A DNA stretch of 64,000 nt from a candidate division WOR-3 bacterium (GTDB lineage: Bacteria > Hydrothermota > 32-111), in NCBI GenBank assembly GCA_039804105.1, contig JBDRZU010000001.1:992001-1056000 (forward strand), in the 5' to 3' direction. Made by a program: the position numbers and the translations under genes. Positions 29,007 through 46,994 of the stretch are shown one piece after another (the stretch's first letter is position 1; each line of letters begins with the position of its first letter). The notes under the pieces were generated by a model. It made no database searches. It saw nothing but the letters and a program-made list of their open reading frames with translations, and was not told the DNA's origin.

Positions 29007-29107
29007 AGGATCATAAATTTAATCTTATTATATACTTATTTTAAAATTTGTCAAGATTTTTCTGTCGATCGGTGGTCGTGCAAAAAACCCGGGGGATCGA
29101 CAGAAAA
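29007..29107 (-). promoter_or_regulatory. CRISPR leader 1 with sigma70 promoter and 13-bp inverted repeat
   Basis: Minus-strand TTGACA (29049-29054)-N16-TATAAT (29027-29032); arms TTTTCTGTCGATC 29058-29070 and GATCGACAGAAAA 29095-29107; 100/101 identical to 46894-46994. Confidence 0.9.
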
Positions 29108-36575: not shown

Positions 36576-38087
36576 TTAAATATTTTCCAAAAATTCCATA
36601 ATTTCGATTGCATCATAGTATGGCGTTATTTTTTCTTCAGTAAAAATTTTATTTGAATTATCATAAGTTGGTAAACAAAAATTTCTACTATTTAAAAAGT
36701 TTATGTAAAATTCAACATCTTCTTTTGATTTTATAAGATAGGAACGCAACTTTTTTATTTTATTTTTTGGTTTATTATTAAAATCGTTAACTAATTTTTT
36801 TAAATTATTAAAATTAAATTTTTCCAATATTTTTTCACCACCTATATAATATGGCCTCCAAAGCAAATTATACGAATCATAGCCTTCTTTAGGTTCTGGT
36901 TTTTGCATATTTGGAACAGAATAAATTTTATTTCTTAATGTTTTAAGATCCGTTGTTATTCCTGAAAAAACAATATGAAAATCTATCCAACTACCTATAT
37001 AATTTAATTTATAATAACTTGAAATTCTTTTTCCTTTTTCCTTTGCACTTTTACATAATTCTTCTGCCAATTCATATCCTCTATAAAATGGAAAATGGGC
37101 TTTTACCAAAGCAACACCAGCAGATGCGGTTAAAGTTAATTCTTTACCATCAATTTTTATCCTTTCTTGTTCAATATTTTTAAGAATATCTTCCGCAATA
37201 CTTAAGCCATATTTACCTTCACAAATTAGGGTAATATCATCCCCTCCAAAAATTATAGGTCTAATTTTTATTTTATTATTGGCTATAAAATGCTTTTTAT
37301 TTTTCATTTTTTTTAAAGTTTCTGAAAACGCTTTTTCATAAATTTTATTTATATCAAATGATATTTTTTTAATTAATCGAATAGAATCTTTAAAATCTTT
37401 TGAATTTTGTAATATTCCTTTAATAAAATTACCCATACTATTTCCATCAATATGAATATAGGCAAGGTGTCCATCTTCTTTACCTCTGAATTTTTCTATA
37501 TTTTTTTCAAAAGTCAAACCATCAAGAACTTCTTTAAATTTTTCTTCAAAAATATTAATTTCTTCTTCTCTCCTCATTAAATATGCTGGTTTTGAAATAT
37601 AACCATCTTCATCTTTATAATAAGCGGGTAGATTATCCAAAAAACTTTCTCTCGTTATTGATATTCCAAGAAGTGATGTCTTTTTAGGTAACTTATTTTT
37701 TCTTATATTCGCTTGTTTTATTAACTCATCAAAATCTTTTTGATAATCCTGTAAATTAGTTTCTTTATATGAAACTGCGAAAGAAACAAGACCATAAGTA
37801 TAATCATAAAAATTTTTAGACAGTTTTTTAGTAAAATTTATTGCGCTTTCCTTATCATTGAACATTAAAAGTAAATTTCCTCCTCCAGAAAATATTATTT
37901 TGCCTTCTTTTGAATCTGATTCAAATCCTTTGTCAAGATCAATTTCTGTCACCCCCAGACTTTTTAAATTTTCATTAGAAAATAATTTTGAAACGATGGA
38001 AGATGCTCCAATATTTTCACGCATTTTTTTTGAAAGAAAAATAAAATTCTGAATCCCTGTCATATCATAATAGGCCAATGTCTTCAT
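36576..38087 (-). CDS. cas10: Cas10 (III-D-like), no HD domain, intact GGDD
   Basis: Begins at DMTGIQNFIF; SGGGN, HIDGNSMG, IIFGGDD, SAGVA, AEELCKSAK. Confidence 0.92.
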   Translation of the reverse strand: MKTLAYYDMTGIQNFIFLSKKMRENIGASSIVSKLFSNENLKSLGVTEIDLDKGFESDSKEGKIIFSGGGNLLLMFNDKESAINFTKKLSKNFYDYTYGLVSFAVSYKETNLQDYQKDFDELIKQANIRKNKLPKKTSLLGISITRESFLDNLPAYYKDEDGYISKPAYLMRREEEINIFEEKFKEVLDGLTFEKNIEKFRGKEDGHLAYIHIDGNSMGNFIKGILQNSKDFKDSIRLIKKISFDINKIYEKAFSETLKKMKNKKHFIANNKIKIRPIIFGGDDITLICEGKYGLSIAEDILKNIEQERIKIDGKELTLTASAGVALVKAHFPFYRGYELAEELCKSAKEKGKRISSYYKLNYIGSWIDFHIVFSGITTDLKTLRNKIYSVPNMQKPEPKEGYDSYNLLWRPYYIGGEKILEKFNFNNLKKLVNDFNNKPKNKIKKLRSYLIKSKEDVEFYINFLNSRNFCLPTYDNSNKIFTEEKITPYYDAIEIMEFLENI

Positions 38088-38096
38088 CTCTCCTCC

Positions 38097-40472
38097 TTAT
38101 TCATAAATCTTTTTTCCAATCAATTCTATTAACAGATCATTCATTCCTGTTTTAGTATATATATTCAATCTCTGTTTACCACTTTTGGTGACTATCCAGT
38201 AAGAAACACCCTTTTCACCTATCATCTTTTCAAATTCAAGATGGTTTTCATCAACTTTACATTTTCTCATCTCATCGAGGATAAATTCCGTAATCAGGTT
38301 TCTTCCAATTCTGTATATTCTTTTAATAATTTCTCTGATATCTTTATCTGTTATATCATTGATTCCACTGAAACCATCGCCCCATAAAGTTGAATGGCTT
38401 TTTTTCTCTCCAATTCTTATCGGAACTTCTTCCTGATCAATTATATAACTCTTATAATAATCAAAAATCATCTTACCAACAGGAGAATCTGTAAAACTTT
38501 TTATGTTTTTATCGTTGTTAAGTAATATTCTAAAATTTTGTGGCAAATTATTTTTAAATAAATTTTTTGCTCTTTCATAGTCAGTTTCATTTTTTATTTC
38601 CTGTATCAATTCATAATACTTCTCATAAAGTTTGAAATCAAACTCAATTGGAATTTCGGGAAGTTTTACAATAGAATTAAAATCCTCAAAAACATAGTAA
38701 ACTGGAACCTTGTATAGTACTGCAAGTATTGTTGCATAAGCGATCTCTGCTTTGAATCCACCGGTTGCAAGTATTTCAATGTTTCTTCCAGTATTATCGA
38801 TTATGTTCGTAACTTTTTTGATAAAATTTATCAGCCCTCTTGTTTCAAATTCATTTGCATCATATTTTAATCCCTCAATTTTTACCCTTTCAACATTTGC
38901 TTTATATTTTTCAAGAATATACTTTTCAAGTAATTTACACGACTTCTCTCCCTCTTCAGTATCACTTTCTATTAAGTAAAACCAGGAGTTTTTATTTACT
39001 TCTTTTTTTAACTTATGGATTGTATTTGTTTCTGCTGAGACCTTTTCTGGAGGATTTGAAAGCATAAAATCCAAAATATGTTCGAAAGTTTCCTCTTTAC
39101 CAGGACACATCTTTCTAAAATTTCCAAACACCGCAGTTCCAACTGTTACAATATAACTTTTCATATCTTTTCTCCTTAAAAGTTTTCCTTTTTTAAAAAT
39201 CAGTTCTTTCCCATTCTCCCCAATTATCGTTCTAACTTCCTTTTTCAATTTTTGTTTCACATTTTTAATCGCATCCAAATCTCCATGAACAAGCAAAACA
39301 TTTTTCGGAGTAGTTCTGTTGACATAAGATATTATACCTTTCAAACTTGAATGGAGTGACAAAGGAAAGTGTTCAACATTGACTTTTTTCACATACTCCT
39401 TCTCATCTATATATATAACTCCATTTTTTTCAGTTTTTAAAAGTTCATATCCTAAAGTTCCTTTTGCAAGATAACCTGTGAAAAGAACAGAGGATGTCTC
39501 ATCCTCAATAAGATGTTTTAAAATTTGATATGAAGGAGTATGAGGATTCAGCATTCCACTTGAAGCAATTATTATCGATTTTCGAGGTATAGAATCAATT
39601 TTTTCAATATATTTAGATTTTAACGATTTAGAATGACATTCTCTATAAATCGGGGTTATTTTATTTGCCATTCCAACCGTATATATCTTTTTAGTTAACA
39701 ATTCTTTACTTCTTCTTTCAAAAAGAAATAGTATTTCCTGTGTTTTTCCAAGTGCAAAAGCAGGTATCAAAACAATTCCGTTTTTTTCTAATGTTTTATT
39801 TATCGATTCTATAAATCTACTTTCATATTTTTCTCTCATCTTTTCTTCATATTCTGAGTTTCCATTTGTTGTTTCTGTTATCATAATATCAACATTTTTT
39901 TTATAATAGTTTAATTTTCCTGTCATAATATTGTTCGAAACAGAAAAATCACCTGTATAAATCAAAGAGTTCCCTTTGTTATCAAAAATATGTATTCCAC
40001 AACTCCCAATAACATGTCCTGATTTAAAAAGTTTAAAATTTATATTAGAATTCAATTGATTAACCTTGTTCAGTTCAATACATTCTATCTTTCTGTCAAG
40101 TTCAAAAAGATTTAATTTATTAAAATAAATTTCATAGAACCTTTTATTATAGTCATTCATCATTAAAACCTTTGCACTATCAAGAAGCATGATTTTATAG
40201 ATTTCTTTCGAATTCTGACTCATCACAATTCTTTTCACATCAAAAATTTTTTCTATAACAGGCAATGAACCAAGATGATCAAGATGGGGATGAGATACAA
40301 ATAAGAGATCAATTTTTTCATCTTCAATTTTATGAAGTAAAGGTAATTTGTTATATCCAGATTTATTTGGATCCATACCACAATCAAGCATAATTTTTAT
40401 TCCTTCCCAATCAACATAATAAGAGTTTGCCCCAATCTCCTGTGCCCCGCCAAGCGGCATAATTTTTATCAA
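38097..40472 (-). CDS. MBL/beta-CASP nuclease fused to APE2256-type CARF + C-terminal domain
   Basis: LDCG, SHPHLDHLG, GHVIG, YTGDF, PAFALGKTQE, SLHS, VHGD. From Met437: VTVGTA, SAETNT, SDTEEG, ATGGFKAE. Confidence 0.85.
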   Translation of the reverse strand: MIKIMPLGGAQEIGANSYYVDWEGIKIMLDCGMDPNKSGYNKLPLLHKIEDEKIDLLFVSHPHLDHLGSLPVIEKIFDVKRIVMSQNSKEIYKIMLLDSAKVLMMNDYNKRFYEIYFNKLNLFELDRKIECIELNKVNQLNSNINFKLFKSGHVIGSCGIHIFDNKGNSLIYTGDFSVSNNIMTGKLNYYKKNVDIMITETTNGNSEYEEKMREKYESRFIESINKTLEKNGIVLIPAFALGKTQEILFLFERRSKELLTKKIYTVGMANKITPIYRECHSKSLKSKYIEKIDSIPRKSIIIASSGMLNPHTPSYQILKHLIEDETSSVLFTGYLAKGTLGYELLKTEKNGVIYIDEKEYVKKVNVEHFPLSLHSSLKGIISYVNRTTPKNVLLVHGDLDAIKNVKQKLKKEVRTIIGENGKELIFKKGKLLRRKDMKSYIVTVGTAVFGNFRKMCPGKEETFEHILDFMLSNPPEKVSAETNTIHKLKKEVNKNSWFYLIESDTEEGEKSCKLLEKYILEKYKANVERVKIEGLKYDANEFETRGLINFIKKVTNIIDNTGRNIEILATGGFKAEIAYATILAVLYKVPVYYVFEDFNSIVKLPEIPIEFDFKLYEKYYELIQEIKNETDYERAKNLFKNNLPQNFRILLNNDKNIKSFTDSPVGKMIFDYYKSYIIDQEEVPIRIGEKKSHSTLWGDGFSGINDITDKDIREIIKRIYRIGRNLITEFILDEMRKCKVDENHLEFEKMIGEKGVSYWIVTKSGKQRLNIYTKTGMNDLLIELIGKKIYE

Positions 40473-41869: not shown

Positions 41870-41969
41870 CTTCACTCCTTTTTTTCTATCATACCAAAAC
41901 GTAAGCAAGCGCGTAATAAGCGATTTCCCAATCAACACCTTCACTCCTTTTTTTCTATCATACCAAAAC
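41867..41969. repeat. 34-bp exact direct repeat around a 35-nt insert
   Basis: CACCTTCACTCCTTTTTTTCTATCATACCAAAAC at 41867-41900 and 41936-41969. Confidence 0.95.
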
Positions 41970-42681
41970 CCATTGAATTTTTTTCTCCTAAACCAGAATC
42001 GTAAGCAATATTTATAAGGTCTGTATCTCCTTCAAGAGTTATTTCATCAAAAATTCCTTTCAATTTAATATCTTTGAATTTTATTAATTTTGTATATGTA
42101 TATTTTTTAGAAGCATAGACATTTACTCCTTTACCGGTATATTTTTCACCAAAAAGAATCTCATATTTTTTTGCAAGATTATTATTCACTCTAATATTAA
42201 ACTCATCATCTATTTTCGTAAGATATTCAACTCTTCCATTTTCATAAAGTTTTGACACAACTATTGGTGAATTGCATATAAATTTATCTTTTCCTTTAAA
42301 TTTTGGGGTTCCTCTTATTTTTATTTCCTGTATTTTAAAATACTCATGTTTTATCTCTAAATAGCCCAATTCATAAAAACCTAAAGCGATTATTTCCAAT
42401 AATCTATTCAATGGAGATGATATAAACCATTTAAAACAACCATTTGACAGTTTCAAGTCAAGATCTTTCACTTTGAAAATATTACCTTTTAAAAATGAAT
42501 AGGTAAAAAGTTTGATATTTTTGTGTTCGTTTTCTTCATAAAAACCATCATCATGTATTTTTTTTGCAAGATCTTTATCGACAACATTTATTGATTTATA
42601 AATCGCAGAAGTCAGATAATAATTGTAGTTAAGTGGAATAGACCTTAACTGGTCATTACAACAAATAATTTCTATTCTCAA
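41941..42681 (-). CDS. cas6: Cas6
   Basis: IPLNYNYYL, KLFTYS, SPIV, GLGEKNSMGFG. Confidence 0.95.
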   Translation of the reverse strand: MRIEIICCNDQLRSIPLNYNYYLTSAIYKSINVVDKDLAKKIHDDGFYEENEHKNIKLFTYSFLKGNIFKVKDLDLKLSNGCFKWFISSPLNRLLEIIALGFYELGYLEIKHEYFKIQEIKIRGTPKFKGKDKFICNSPIVVSKLYENGRVEYLTKIDDEFNIRVNNNLAKKYEILFGEKYTGKGVNVYASKKYTYTKLIKFKDIKLKGIFDEITLEGDTDLINIAYDSGLGEKNSMGFGMIEKKE

Positions 42682-42692
42682 AATTTCCCCTC

Positions 42693-44435
42693 TTATATTA
42701 AGTTTATTAAATCGCTCAATTCCCTTATTTTTTCTATATTTTTTGCATTCAAAAATTTTATGTATCTACAGAAAGTTTGTTTAAAAAGTTTCAGTCCTTT
42801 TAAATTTTTTATTATATCTTCCATAACATCTTCATCTTTGTATTTGATATAATATGTTAACAATCCTCTTATTCCAAAAAGCAAATAATCTTCTTTTTCG
42901 AATTCTTTCATTTTTTTAAAAAAGTAATAATAAAGTTTTTTCGACATCTCTTGATCAGTTTCAAGAAATGAAAATGCATAATACTCAATTGCAAGATAAT
43001 ACATGTAATAGAATCTTGTGTCCTTAACTAATTCAAAGAAATCTTCCCACAAAAACTTCACTTCTTCTGATTTTCCAAGATGTGCATTCAATCTTATCTT
43101 CTCAAAATGGATAAAAACTTTCTGAATATTTTCAGGAGTTGCTTTTTTAAGATAATTTTCAGCAAGACCAATATATTTTTTAGAATTATTATAATTCCCT
43201 TTTAAAGTATTCAATTTTGCAAGATAACAGCAAACTCTTGATACATCAGAAGTAAGATACTTTTTACAAAACTCAAGATTATTTAAAAGATATTTTTCTG
43301 CTTTTTTAAAATCCTTATTGTGTATTAAGTATTGAGATAAAGTTCCATAGGTTGATATAGAAAGGTGTTTTCCTGTATATTTTTTTTCTTCCAAGTTCAA
43401 TTTCAAAAGTTTTAAGCCCTCTTTAAATCTGTAAATGTCTTTTAAAAATACTGCATAAACATTGTTAAATTCGATAGAAATATTATTATACTCAAATAAT
43501 TTTTCTTTTATAAGTTCATTTTTTGTATCATTTGCTCTTTTAAAATAATTTTCAGCAGTTAAAATATCTCCCGATTGATTATAATGTAATGCCAATCTTG
43601 ATAGAACAAGAAAGTAATAATTCTTTGACTTTATATCCTCTCTATTTTTAAGATATGCCTCAAGATTATTGTAAATTGGAAGATAGGAATTTTTATCACT
43701 CTTCAACAGATAATTTTCAGCAATATTGAACATTCTTTCAACACCAGAGAGAAATCTTTTATCGACTGTTTCAGTGTAATCTCCAAAGACATTTTTTATT
43801 ACTTCTTTAAAATTTTTCAATTTTTTATCAGGATAAACAAAGATTCCCTCTTTTATTTCCTTATCAAAACAATATTTTTTTTCTTCTATAAAATCAACTT
43901 CAAGCAGATTACCTTCAAAATCGAGTGCTCCAGTAAAACAAAATTTATCTTCCACATATCTATTCGTTACTGCCAAATATAAAAGCACTGCTATTGGAAG
44001 TTCGAGCGATTCACAATCAAGAGAAAAAATCTTTTCTATCTCATCAAAATTTTCAAGTATTATTTTGTTAGGATTCAAATCAATGATTATCTCTTTTTGG
44101 GCAAAATATTTTTCAACAACCACAACTGCTTTTCTTATAACATTTGCTATGTTTTCCTTATAAATGATTGTTTCATTTTCAGAAAAATTGACTTTTAACG
44201 GAATAAGAACCGGATACTTTTGATTTTTATCTATTATTACCACAGGAGCAAAAACATTATATTCCAAATGTGGATTTAAAATATCTACACTTTTACTCAA
44301 ATTTTTCAAAATTGTCTTCATATCATATGTTTTCACTTCATTTAAAAGTTTATCTATTATTAATTTTGAATGACTATAATTTTGAAATTTCAAAAGTAAA
44401 TTCAAATATTCAAATGACCTTAAATCTGATCTCAA
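42693..44435 (-). CDS. Lon-type (S16) protease domain + C-terminal TPR repeats
   Basis: DCES143LELPIAV...FTGALDFEGNLLEVDFIEEK186 (Ser-Lys 43 apart). TPR-like LALHYNQSGDILTAENYFKRA, GTLSQYLIHNKDFKKAEKYL, YLAKLNTLKGNYNNSKKY. Confidence 0.8.
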   Translation of the reverse strand: MRSDLRSFEYLNLLLKFQNYSHSKLIIDKLLNEVKTYDMKTILKNLSKSVDILNPHLEYNVFAPVVIIDKNQKYPVLIPLKVNFSENETIIYKENIANVIRKAVVVVEKYFAQKEIIIDLNPNKIILENFDEIEKIFSLDCESLELPIAVLLYLAVTNRYVEDKFCFTGALDFEGNLLEVDFIEEKKYCFDKEIKEGIFVYPDKKLKNFKEVIKNVFGDYTETVDKRFLSGVERMFNIAENYLLKSDKNSYLPIYNNLEAYLKNREDIKSKNYYFLVLSRLALHYNQSGDILTAENYFKRANDTKNELIKEKLFEYNNISIEFNNVYAVFLKDIYRFKEGLKLLKLNLEEKKYTGKHLSISTYGTLSQYLIHNKDFKKAEKYLLNNLEFCKKYLTSDVSRVCCYLAKLNTLKGNYNNSKKYIGLAENYLKKATPENIQKVFIHFEKIRLNAHLGKSEEVKFLWEDFFELVKDTRFYYMYYLAIEYYAFSFLETDQEMSKKLYYYFFKKMKEFEKEDYLLFGIRGLLTYYIKYKDEDVMEDIIKNLKGLKLFKQTFCRYIKFLNAKNIEKIRELSDLINLI

Positions 44436-45252
44436 TCATCTCCCCACTTTTTAAAGATTTTACTTTGATAATATTTTCTTTTTCAAAAGATGGAGTCAAA
44501 ATAAGTTCTTTATCTTCTAATTTTTTATTATCTATTAAAAATTTACCTTTTATACTTTTACATATAATTTTTTTGTCTTCAAACTTCAGAAACAAAATAT
44601 TTCCATCATTAAACTTTATTTCTCTCATTTTTTGTAATTTTTCTATATTCTTTATAATTTCGTCTTTTTCTGGTTGTTTCTTTTTTGCTGCCAAAACAGG
44701 TTTTAAAAAATCAACAGGTATTTCCCAGACAAAAACCTTATCTTTTTTAAATTCTTCTATGTAAGTTTTCAAATGGATATATGGAGAAATAAATTTGAAT
44801 TCATCTTCTTTTATTATTTTAAAAACATCATTTAAAATTATATTCAAATTCAAATCTTTCAAATTTGTATCTTCAATATATTTTGAAAAAACGAACGCCT
44901 CTTTCGGCAAAGAAATTTGCACTGGCGCAAAATATATTTTTTGTTTTAATTTTAGGGAGTCATAACACAACTCAGTTTTTCCTTCATATTCTGGGATAAA
45001 TATAACCTCATTATCTAAAATTTCCTTTACAAAAACAAATTTTTCAGGAACTGATTTTAGAATTGGGTTATATAGTGAATAAACTTTTTGGGGTGAGATT
45101 TCAGGAGGACTCTTTCCAATTAAAAATTTTTCAAGCCAATCGTTTAAAGTTTTTAAATACAATTTTTCTTTCTTTTTATCAAATAAAATCTTTTCACCTG
45201 ACTTAAAAAGTATATATTTTTCAAAATCATTAAATTCAATCTGATTTTTCAT
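44410..45252 (-). CDS. CalpT-like putative anti-sigma factor / protease substrate
   Basis: 280 aa between sigma-like and Lon genes; beta-rich N-terminal region, linker PVLAA(189)KK, ~90-aa beta-rich tail. Confidence 0.55.
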   Translation of the reverse strand: MKNQIEFNDFEKYILFKSGEKILFDKKKEKLYLKTLNDWLEKFLIGKSPPEISPQKVYSLYNPILKSVPEKFVFVKEILDNEVIFIPEYEGKTELCYDSLKLKQKIYFAPVQISLPKEAFVFSKYIEDTNLKDLNLNIILNDVFKIIKEDEFKFISPYIHLKTYIEEFKKDKVFVWEIPVDFLKPVLAAKKKQPEKDEIIKNIEKLQKMREIKFNDGNILFLKFEDKKIICKSIKGKFLIDNKKLEDKELILTPSFEKENIIKVKSLKSGEMIEIRFKVI

Positions 45253-45313
45253 AAACTCCTCAATCTTTCTTTCAATAAATATAAACTAAAAAATTTTCAA
45301 AAAACAAAAATTT

Positions 45314-46243
45314 TTATTTATTTTTGTAATTTTTTAAAATATTTTTTAAATCATCACAAGAGAGAGAATTTTTTACAACAAATTCTTCTATTTTTTTTTC
45401 AATCTTTTTTACATAAAACTGTATATTCTGTGGAGAAGTTTTTAATTCCTCTGCAATCTTTACAATTGTTATATCTTGTAAAAATTTAGATATAATACTT
45501 TTTTCATAATCGTTAAACAATGATTCAAATTTTTCATAATAAAAATTCCAATCCATTTCTTCTGTTTTTAATACAATTTCGTTTTCTCTTATACTACCAT
45601 TACCTTGTTCTTGTTCATCATCAATGATATTCACAACATCATTAAAAGCATATTTCAATTCATCCATTACTTTTTTTATCGATATTTTTCCATTTTCTCT
45701 GTATATCAAATAATCAAGATATTCTTGTAAATCTTTTGTTTTAAATAGTTGCTTGTTTCCTCTTAATTTTGGCTTTTGCGGAATTCTATTCTTTTCGAAA
45801 TTTCTAATCTTATTTTTATTGATCAAAATTTCTTGATCAAATTTAATATCTTTTTTAATTCCATAAAATTCTATTAAAATTTTCTTTATAGTAAAAAAAA
45901 GTTTTTTTTCTGGCTTTTTAGAAGTAATATCTTCGACATAATTTTCAAACATTCTGTTGATTAATTTTTTAAAACCTGTTTCATCAGAAAGATGACCTTT
46001 TTCAATTTTTCCCTTAAAGTAATTTAGATTGTTGTATATTTTTTTAGAAATAAAATTATATATCTCTGATTTAGCAAGATCTTCATTTTCTTTATTATAT
46101 ATTTCAAAAATGATGTAGTATTCGGGATTATGGTAAAACTTTTGTAAAAGATATTCTGTTAAAATTGTTATAAATTGTTCATTTAATTTTTTTTTCTGGG
46201 GGGTTTCTTTATTTTCAATTATTTTTTTTAATAATTCAAACAT
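45314..46243 (-). CDS. ECF-like sigma factor (CalpS-like role)
   Basis: Region-2-like ENEDLAKSEIY...FKKLINRMFENYVED; region-4 HTH DYEKSII...TIVKIAEELKTSPQNIQFYVKKI. ATG 46243 follows a promoter. Confidence 0.7.
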   Translation of the reverse strand: MFELLKKIIENKETPQKKKLNEQFITILTEYLLQKFYHNPEYYIIFEIYNKENEDLAKSEIYNFISKKIYNNLNYFKGKIEKGHLSDETGFKKLINRMFENYVEDITSKKPEKKLFFTIKKILIEFYGIKKDIKFDQEILINKNKIRNFEKNRIPQKPKLRGNKQLFKTKDLQEYLDYLIYRENGKISIKKVMDELKYAFNDVVNIIDDEQEQGNGSIRENEIVLKTEEMDWNFYYEKFESLFNDYEKSIISKFLQDITIVKIAEELKTSPQNIQFYVKKIEKKIEEFVVKNSLSCDDLKNILKNYKNK

Positions 46244-46253
46244 AAATATAAAA

Positions 46254-46282
46254 AATATAAAGTATTTTTTTACTATTGTCAA
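46254..46282 (-). promoter_or_regulatory. Putative sigma70 promoter of the sigma-like gene
   Basis: Minus-strand TTGACA (46277-46282)-N17-TATATT (46254-46259), 10 nt before the ATG. Confidence 0.6.
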
Positions 46283-46314: not shown

Positions 46315-46893
46315 GTTTCCATACCAAAAATGGTGCGATTAAGACCGAGAACGATCCGTTCTCGTCGATTTATAGAATCTTAAAGTTTCCATACCAAAAA
46401 TGGTGCGATTAAGACAAAAAACAATGAAAATTAAAAAAATCATTTCACTTATGTTTCCATACCAAAAATGGTGCGATTAAGACATTTTGAACAACATCGA
46501 CGAAGTTATTTACATCAACCCGTTTCCATACCAAAAATGGTGCGATTAAGACCTAAGATAGGAAGATAGGAAGAGAACAAAAGGAGGCAAAATGTGTTTC
46601 CATACCAAAAATGGTGCGATTAAGACACAACCCCTCTGCTGAGGGCTTCATCACATCTTCTCGAAAGTTTCCATACCAAAAATGGTGCGATTAAGACATT
46701 GATGGATTTATTACTGATTTTTTATGGTCTGATGAAGTTTCCATACCAAAAATGGTGCGATTAAGACGGGGTGAGGAGTTTAGGTACTCCTCTGACTACG
46801 ATAAAGGATTTTGTTTCCATACCAAAAATGGTGCGATTAAGACATAAAATAAAATAAAATAAAAAAATAGGCACCACCGGGTGCGATTAAGAC
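46315..46893 (-). CRISPR. CRISPR array 2: 8 perfect repeats + truncated leader-proximal repeat, 8 spacers
   Basis: Same 31-bp repeat at 46315, 46385, 46453, 46522, 46596, 46667, 46737, 46813; only 14 nt remain at 46880-46893. Confidence 0.97.
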
Positions 46894-46994
46894 AGGATCA
46901 TAAATTTAATTTTATTATATACTTATTTTAAAATTTGTCAAGATTTTTCTGTCGATCGGTGGTCGTGCAAAAAACCCGGGGGATCGACAGAAAA
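46894..46994 (-). promoter_or_regulatory. CRISPR leader 2
   Basis: Near-identical to leader 1; TTGACA 46936-46941, TATAAT 46914-46919. Confidence 0.9.

Follow-up and report, generated by a model that had tools for sequence, protein, structure and literature searches.

A three-gene cassette heading a type III CRISPR-cas operon in a Hydrothermota bacterium encodes a Lon-TPR protease, a candidate cleavable partner and a sigma-like protein

Three consecutive minus-strand genes lie between a CRISPR array and cas6 in a 64,000-nucleotide stretch of the genome of a candidate division WOR-3 bacterium (Bacteria; Hydrothermota; 32-111; GenBank assembly GCA_039804105.1, contig JBDRZU010000001.1, positions 992,001 to 1,056,000), hereafter the window, where they form part of a long minus-strand cas operon (Table 1). 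They encode a sigma-like helix-turn-helix (HTH) protein, a partner protein lacking family matches and a protease, here called Lon-TPR, in which a Lon domain is followed by tetratricopeptide repeats (TPRs). Read along the minus strand, the order is leader, array 2, a promoter-like site, the HTH gene, the partner gene, the Lon-TPR gene and cas6, in agreement with an original prediction, made from the letters of the window, that three co-oriented genes separate array 2 from cas6. The HTH and partner genes are 61 nt apart, and orthologues of the HTH protein begin MFELL as it does. Partner and protease genes share exactly 26 nt, both in the window (44410-44435) and in the record of TA06 bacterium 32_111 (L001, 9998-10023), although the encoded proteins are just 38-48% identical between the two species, which suggests that translation of partner and protease is coupled. 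With a maximum 19-residue hydropathy of no more than 1.48 in each, all three proteins are predicted to be cytoplasmic. The source genome (G000) has a G+C content of about 25%, and contigs from four hot-spring metagenome runs cover the locus near-identically, although their joints, with sides of fewer than 30 letters, carry no information.

Table 1. Features of the cassette and its surroundings (window coordinates)
Feature	Position	Strand	Remarks
Sigma-like / HTH gene	45314-46243	-	309 aa, 37.4 kDa; ATG at 46243
Partner ("T") gene	44410-45252	-	280 aa, 33.4 kDa; no family matches; candidate protease substrate
PVLAAKKK linker of the partner	44677-44700	-	residues 185-192; candidate cut after Ala189
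Lon-TPR protease gene	42693-44435	-	580 aa, 69.3 kDa; TTG start
Lon (S16) proteolytic domain	43761-44258	-	residues ~60-225
Ser143 codon	44007-44009	-
Lys186 codon	43878-43880	-
TPR domain	42696-43760	-	residues 226-580 (~355 aa), ~19 helices
cas6	41941-42681	-	11 nt downstream of the protease gene
Promoter-like site just upstream of the sigma-like gene	46254-46282	-	TTGACA-17-TATATT, 11/12
CRISPR array 2	46315-46843	-	eight perfect copies of a 31-nt repeat; next to the cassette, on its upstream side
Array 2 leader promoter-like site	46914-46941	-	TTGACA-16-TATAAT, 12/12, sigma-70-type
beta-CASP/MBL nuclease and CARF-type domain fusion	38097-40472	-	791 aa; downstream of cas6
Cas10	36576-38087	-	503 aa; no HD domain; GGDD intact (IIFGGDDITL)
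Leader inverted repeat	46948-46991		in the window
Leader inverted repeat	29061-29104		in the window
Degenerate leader-proximal "repeat" of array 2	46871-46897

The 580-aa protein consists of a short helical N-terminus, an ATPase-less Lon domain and a TPR domain of about nine repeats. Searched as a single sequence it gave weak matches (1xhk at E 0.008, ChlI and TPR_12); a profile of nine aligned family members (the A6 alignment) matched the Lon protease domain of M. jannaschii, 1xhk, at 1.3e-7 and A. fulgidus Lon domains at 7e-6 to 1.5e-5, with archaeal LonB-type domains as its best PDB sequence matches. Ser143 and Lys186 occupy the positions of the catalytic dyad of 1xhk in the alignment, and S143, G169, G175 and K186 are invariant in 9/9 members. 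Lon_C was matched in 4/9 members (best 2.7e-6) and TPR_12 in all nine. No AAA+ family was matched in Pfam, merely some 60 residues precede the protease domain, and the NCBIfam LonB match is limited to the protease positions 450-546. In the AlphaFold2 (AF2) model, computed from a five-row alignment, residues ~231-580 are confident (predicted local distance difference test, pLDDT, mostly 74-94 by block), and for this part Foldseek found 83 PDB matches at E<=0.001; the matches listed are all TPR-type (LGN, NprR, Rap, KLC), those to NprR and Rap having TM-scores of 0.38-0.43 by query. One Lon-TPR orthologue also matches ComR_TPR (27.0 bits against a Pfam cut-off of 26.5, E 4.2e-6). Conservation is highest in the TPR domain, which is 52% identical to that of the family member P0007; the Lon domain reaches 46% and the N-terminus 31%. 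Pfam gave no SAVED or CARF match, either for the window protein (E<=0.01) or for the nine members (E<=0.1), and the CHAT family was unmatched in the same proteins. PADLOC models did not match the protease, PF18145 was unmatched in G000 in a search that had no positive control, and the CalpL chain was not among the 60 listed of the 66 PDB sequence matches of the A6 profile at E<=10. The original prediction of a Ser143/Lys186 dyad, of about 340 aa of TPR-like repeats and of a protease free of SAVED or CARF motifs is thus borne out, the TPR domain by AF2, Foldseek and Pfam together.

The Lon-TPR family is very rare. A word-indexed search of 5.8 billion proteins yielded five Lon-TPR clusters, and a two-row profile of residues 1-231, run exhaustively with HMMER against 1.84 billion representatives, yielded seven proteins at E<=0.001. 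Six of these have 572-589 aa and can be aligned over their full length. The other, P0020, carries three Lon-like stretches in a different build and was excluded; the A6 alignment also leaves out the window's own cluster, P0004, and a near-duplicate, P0006 (89% identity). Within the phylum, Lon-TPR occurs in 2/271 genomes (E<=1e-10) and the HTH protein in the same two, and of the 13 genomes of the family, the two with the cassette alone yielded a close cas6. Neither a scan of viral contigs nor a tblastn search of plasmids with P0015 returned any Lon-TPR family member, and the scans of genome contigs and of metagenome contigs each returned the TA06 record alone. In a WOR-3 metagenome-assembled genome, the three cassette proteins stand under consecutive locus tags.

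The TA06 record, whose genome (G003) belongs to the window's genus, allows the cassette to be compared with its surroundings. There the order array, HTH gene, partner, Lon-TPR and cas6 is the same as in the window, which upholds the predicted three-gene linkage, and in both genomes the cassette is embedded in type III cas operons. The TA06 array has 26 repeats that differ from the window repeat by one base. Its HTH protein has 330 aa and is 29% identical to that of the window, its partner 279 aa (38%) and its Lon-TPR 581 aa (48%), and its Cas6 is 62% identical, with a 4-nt overlap between cas6 and the protease gene where the window has an 11-nt gap. The effector of the TA06 locus is of type III-A, with an HD-Cas10 bearing GGDD, Csm2-5 and Csm6, whereas that of the window is of type III-D, and the Cas10s of the two loci are essentially unrelated, as are the two Csm6-like proteins. 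GGDD is retained in the two Cas10s, and a separate CARF-HEPN effector is present at each locus. On these comparisons and on the distribution among genomes, array, cassette and cas6 are inherited as a unit, and the effector module beside it has been exchanged.

The partner is the candidate substrate of the protease. Its residues 185-192 read PVLAAKKK, the linker with PVLAA ending at residue 189 that had been pointed out before, and lie about two-thirds along the protein in a low-confidence, apparently unstructured stretch of the AF2 model. Four partner sequences were available: P185, A189, K190 and K192 are invariant in all of them, with PVLVAKKK in P0009 and PIFTAKLK in L001 as variants, and two of the four Ala residues of the window partner fall in the linker. 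By analogy with CalpT we infer cleavage at PVLAA|KKK; a cut after Ala189 would give calculated fragments of 22.5 + 10.8 kDa, close to the anticipated ~22 + ~10 kDa and to the sizes of the CalpT fragments. Such a cut may also create a degradation signal. The transfer-messenger RNA (tmRNA) of the genome (G000:C2:378171-378504) has a tag frame ending ...KDNNFALAA*, as read by eye since aragorn did not identify the tag, the tag frame of G003 also ends ...FALAA, and ClpX is present in the host. Since the tmRNA tag ends ...ALAA, an N-terminal fragment ending ...VLAA would mimic the host degradation tag. The partner was unmatched in Pfam, NCBIfam, PADLOC and PDB sequences, its only relatives found were close ones and the TA06 orthologue, and PF09853 was unmatched in G000 and G003. 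In the ESM Atlas its best feature score was 0.77, with structure TM-scores of at most 0.32, too low to be of use.

For the 309-aa protein, the original prediction of an ECF-like (extracytoplasmic function) sigma factor with regions 2 and 4 holds in part: an HTH of the region-4 type is detectable, region 2 is not. TIGR02937 (sigma-70/ECF) was matched at E 0.006 by the window protein and at 6e-5 by an orthologue, both under the 42.9-bit cut-off, and the orthologue matched FliA at 8.8e-5, also under the curated cut-off. GerE/HTH matches occur in 4/5 members (best E 6.4e-4). Compared by hhalign with a profile of six ECF sigmas, two from G000 and four from related genomes of the phylum, residues 238-285 alone aligned, on the sigma-4 HTH, at E 0.018. 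Both HTH orthologues match sigma-70-family models, and repressor families were unmatched. PADLOC gave a weak match to PD-Lambda-5_A (E 1.6e-4), and PDB sequence searches returned nothing meaningful. The ESM Atlas holds many unnamed clusters of 309-369 aa that look alike, whose feature scores reach 0.96; they belong to Bacteroidota, Thermodesulfobacteriota and Acidobacteriota, and one has Sigma70_r2 in 14% of its members, which we take as a lead only. As the matches are sub-threshold and mostly confined to the C-terminal HTH, the protein is called sigma-like here and not a sigma factor.

Outside the cassette, the window contains 47 matches to the repeat, versus none in shuffled sequence, and array 1 has 39 repeats. 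Both arrays are preceded by the same leader sequence. Array 2 is probably transcribed from the minus strand, judging from the promoter-like site of its leader; transcription of the arrays from the plus strand (repeat end ATTAAGAC) was considered and rejected, since both have a 12/12 promoter-like site on the minus strand. A promoter-like site also stands upstream of the sigma-like orthologue in the TA06 record (TTGACA-17-TATTAT). Because the total number of promoter-like sites in the region (38 against 33.3 +/- 6.5 by chance) is not above chance, just the two near-perfect sites are recorded in Table 1. Exact repeat copies number 72 in the genome, 47 of them in the window, and a third array with the same repeat and leader lies outside the window at G000:C1 ~1,091,700-1,093,500. 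The leaders share a G+C-rich inverted repeat, TCTGTCGATC-N24-GATCGACAGA, identical at every CRISPR leader of G000: besides the two copies in the window, one lies at G000:C1:1093580, so that all three genome copies are in leaders. It ends 6 nt upstream of the perfect TTGACA-16-TATAAT, and is kept in the TA06 leader, where the two arms have changed to match each other (TCTGTCTA...TAGACAGA). This inverted repeat could form a hairpin or be a site for a regulator or integration host. In array 2, the "repeat" nearest the leader (GTCTTAATCGCACCCGGTGGTGCC) is degenerate and, with the T-run that follows it, makes a terminator-like hairpin between leader promoter and array 2, which array 1 lacks.

Downstream of cas6 follow a CARF-HEPN protein of the TIGR02710 family and, further on, the III-D proteins Csx10, Csx7, Csx19 and a TIGR03986 repeat-associated mysterious protein (RAMP), then cas4, cas1 and array 1. 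Homology links the III-D RAMP fusion to the gRAMP of III-E (E 3.6e-48). Since its Cas10 lacks an HD domain and has an intact GGDD, the window locus probably signals by cyclic oligoadenylate (cOA), without DNA cutting. The nearby 791-aa protein combines a beta-CASP/metallo-beta-lactamase (MBL) nuclease part (residues 2-290; aCPSF1 at 8.6e-64, type VII Cas14 model at 1.5e-57) with a CARF-type part (Cas_APE2256 / TIGR02619), and may be a cOA-gated beta-CASP RNase of the III-D locus.

Two protease-based relays of type III loci bear comparison with the cassette. CalpL is reported to sense cyclic tetra-adenylate (cA4) through SAVED, and Csx29 to be activated by RNA-loaded Cas7-11. With CalpL/T/S the cassette shares three soluble proteins in a type III locus and a sigma-like third protein. 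Both Lon-TPR and CalpL are Lon-type Ser/Lys proteases free of an ATPase module, in which a short helical N-terminus precedes the catalytic domain and a non-catalytic domain follows it; the partner resembles CalpT only in its size of about 33 kDa, its gene position and its Ala-containing linker at about two-thirds of its length. Reported fragments are 23 + 10 kDa for SsCalpT and 24.3 + 10.9 kDa for CCaCalpT, whose cleavage in LAA|A leaves an LAA degron exposed. However, the C-terminal domain of the cassette protease is TPR and not SAVED, which leaves it no known site for cA4 and no known way of forming filaments, neither a MazF-like nor a DUF2080 domain could be detected in the partner, and the 309-aa protein, unlike CalpS, has a weak sigma-4 match only. 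With Craspase (Cas7-11, TPR-CHAT Csx29, Csx30 and CASP-sigma) the cassette shares a fusion of TPR and protease, encoded in a type III locus alongside a sigma-type factor and a substrate, here a candidate one, and, as proposed here, activation without cOA. Yet Lon-TPR is a serine protease of the Lon type whereas Csx29 is a cysteine protease of the CHAT type, Lon-TPR has its protease N-terminal and its TPR C-terminal, the reverse of the order in Csx29, and the cassette also accompanies III-A Csm, with no sign of docking. Lacking both the SAVED domain of CalpL and the CHAT domain of Csx29, Lon-TPR belongs to neither family; it plausibly works like both.

Looser parallels lie outside these two relays. 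The DdvS/DdvA pair of Myxococcus xanthus is described as an ECF sigma factor with a transmembrane TPR-CHAT anti-sigma factor that controls an island of CBASS (cyclic-oligonucleotide-based antiphage signalling system) and type III-B. There too a sensor of the TPR-protease type is tied to a sigma factor beside type III CRISPR, that module being the reported input that turns on the defence genes; DdvA, however, is described as one membrane protein that combines a zinc anti-sigma domain with a periplasmic TPR-CHAT part, whereas protease and partner of the cassette are separate and predicted to be cytoplasmic. The cascade of DegS/RseP, RseA, sigma-E and ClpXP, in which regulated cleavage is reported to expose a C-terminal degron of the Ala-Ala type on an anti-sigma factor, resembles the cassette in that respect and differs from it in spanning the envelope and using unrelated proteases, with no homology. 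Receptors of the RRNPP type come to mind through NprR and Rap among the TPR structural matches and ComR_TPR in one orthologue; their outputs are HTH domains or phosphatase binding and not a protease, and the resemblance is that of a generic TPR fold. A literature search found neither the terms "Lon-TPR" and "TPR-Lon" nor a Lon, tetratricopeptide and anti-sigma protein linked to CRISPR. A 2018 survey of CRISPR-linked genes, in the passages covered, describes CARF-Lon membrane fusions and STAND-TPR proteins and no Lon-TPR, and TPR is not mentioned in a 2024 survey of type III effectors.

Taken together, the architectures and the conserved linkage lead us to propose, tentatively, that the three genes are a regulatory module complete in itself, gated by its protease and placed at the head of the type III CRISPR-cas operon, triggered through its TPR domain and otherwise comparable to CalpL/T/S or Craspase. 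In this model the TPR domain would hold or perceive a protein or peptide partner, and cOA would not be sensed. On this cue, Lon-TPR would cut the 33-kDa partner within the linker motif P-x-x-x-A|K-x-K into the 22.5- and 10.8-kDa fragments. The new C-terminus (...VLAA) would resemble an ssrA tag (...ALAA), so that host proteases such as ClpXP might remove the N-terminal fragment. The sigma-like protein, which would be bound by the intact partner, would then be freed and would change transcription, plausibly that of the CRISPR locus itself. Alternatively, the TPR domain would hold the substrate, and oligomerisation would activate the protease. The module may act upstream of CRISPR, in the manner of DdvA.

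If the cassette is a real switch, the chances are about even that its trigger is a protein or peptide cue sensed by the TPR domain independently of Cas10. We favour such a TPR-mediated cue because no known cOA-binding domain was detected in a protease whose loci have CARF effectors of their own, and because docking would need to work with both III-D and III-A complexes. Coupling to cOA by an unrecognised route appears unlikely under the same premise, and docking on the type III complex or on Cas6 a little less likely again, on a par with all other triggers combined.

Several observations weigh against the proposed module. When Lon-TPR becomes active, and whether it does, is itself part of the proposal, and its S16 fold is read from sequence profiles, because residues 1-230 of the AF2 model have a pLDDT below 50 and are unreliable. 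Homology to CalpT could not be detected in the partner, which the original prediction had called CalpT-like: PemK/MazF and DUF2080 (PF09853) were unmatched at E<=10 in 4/4 partner members, hhalign with a profile of 19 MazF sequences from related genomes scored the partner at E 0.23 with a probability of 0.3%, and the fold model is too poor to compare. This model, computed from a four-row alignment, has a mean pLDDT of 46, with residues 209-280 alone usable; they form a small beta-sandwich whose best match in the wide search is FHA-like at Z 6.9, which is noise level. Foldseek found no match to the partner model at E<=0.001, and CalpT was not among the 50 structural matches listed. No anti-sigma family was detected in the partner either, while prediction of its complex with the sigma-like protein, which counts neither for nor against the module, gave ipSAE values of 0.03 and 0.00 (mark 0.32), the fold of the partner being uncertain. 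The linker LAA is not universal, reading LVA in P0009 and FTA in L001; LVA is an efficient ssrA-type tag, and FTA is to our knowledge not one. All sigma matches of the 309-aa protein are under curated cut-offs, its residues 1-140 (sigma-2) compared with the ECF profile gave E 0.06 and a probability of 0.9%, and the protein may be an ordinary HTH regulator. Finally, the context of the cassette comes from one genus-level clade and does not include the five distant members P0015-P0019.

Other explanations have to be set against this proposal. The cassette could be a true downstream effector, with the type III system switching on Lon-TPR, which would dock through its TPR domain on the RNA-loaded complex or would sense cOA at an unrecognised site, and the partner being cut as CalpT is. 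It does lie inside type III loci in both contexts, both Cas10s keep the GGDD cyclase motif, and the III-D RAMP fusion of the window is a relative of the gRAMP of III-E, where a TPR-protease is reported to dock on the effector. But a SAVED or CARF domain was not found in the protease, nor PF18145 in the genome (with the limit on that search given above), and each locus already has dedicated CARF effectors; moreover, cas6 and the repeat travel with the cassette while Cas10 does not. Docking on the III-D complex, put forward in the original prediction, is disfavoured in particular: an orthologous cassette, its protease 48% identical, sits beside a III-A Csm complex with an unrelated Cas10, and a conserved docking surface is improbable where the effector subtypes differ in this way. 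Overall we judge an effector role of this kind unlikely.

Somewhat less likely still is an abortive-infection system, in which the 280-aa protein would be a latent toxic effector or its inhibitor, cleavage would lead to growth arrest and the HTH protein would be just a repressor or activator of the module itself and no sigma factor. The weakness of the sigma assignment, limited as it is to the HTH, would fit, as would the lack of a recognisable anti-sigma domain in the partner, and precedents are found in the reports that cleaved Csx30 activates downstream antiviral pathways (PMC11106740) and that CalpT has a MazF-like domain. Against it, the partner matched no toxin family, the sigma-like gene precedes that of the partner as in sigma/anti-sigma pairs, and the two HTH orthologues match models of the sigma-70 family and not repressor families. 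A regulatory or housekeeping protease operon that merely hitch-hikes beside the array, without a functional tie to CRISPR or defence, would accord with the cassette having its own near-consensus promoter-like site of the sigma-70 type. We consider it improbable, and the least likely of the explanations weighed here, in view of the tight junctions with cas6 (11 nt here and a 4-nt overlap in L001), the co-inheritance of the cassette with cas6 and repeat while effector modules are swapped, and its not being found in the other 269 of the 271 phylum genomes searched.

The TPR-triggered module can also be taken further, to a third, cOA-independent class of CRISPR-associated protease signalling that arms the adaptive system in response to an innate infection input; this extension is speculative and we hold it to be unlikely. 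Its TPR domain would sense a phage protein or peptide, or else the state of CRISPR RNA biogenesis through the co-inherited Cas6, and the freed sigma-like protein would switch on the arrays and cas genes, with the leader palindrome upstream of the -35 element as its candidate site.

Two relays of protease, anti-sigma factor and sigma factor are known to be linked to CRISPR, each with its own way of sensing infection. The practical value of a further example is limited by the rarity of the family and by its occurrence in an uncultured lineage that offers no experimental handle. The cassette adds to the recurring tie of type III CRISPR with dedicated transcription factors, and it would offer a compact three-protein system in which to find the input of such a relay. 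A Lon protease with TPR at the sensor position, moving between III-A and III-D loci together with cas6, would suggest a different input into the same type of relay.

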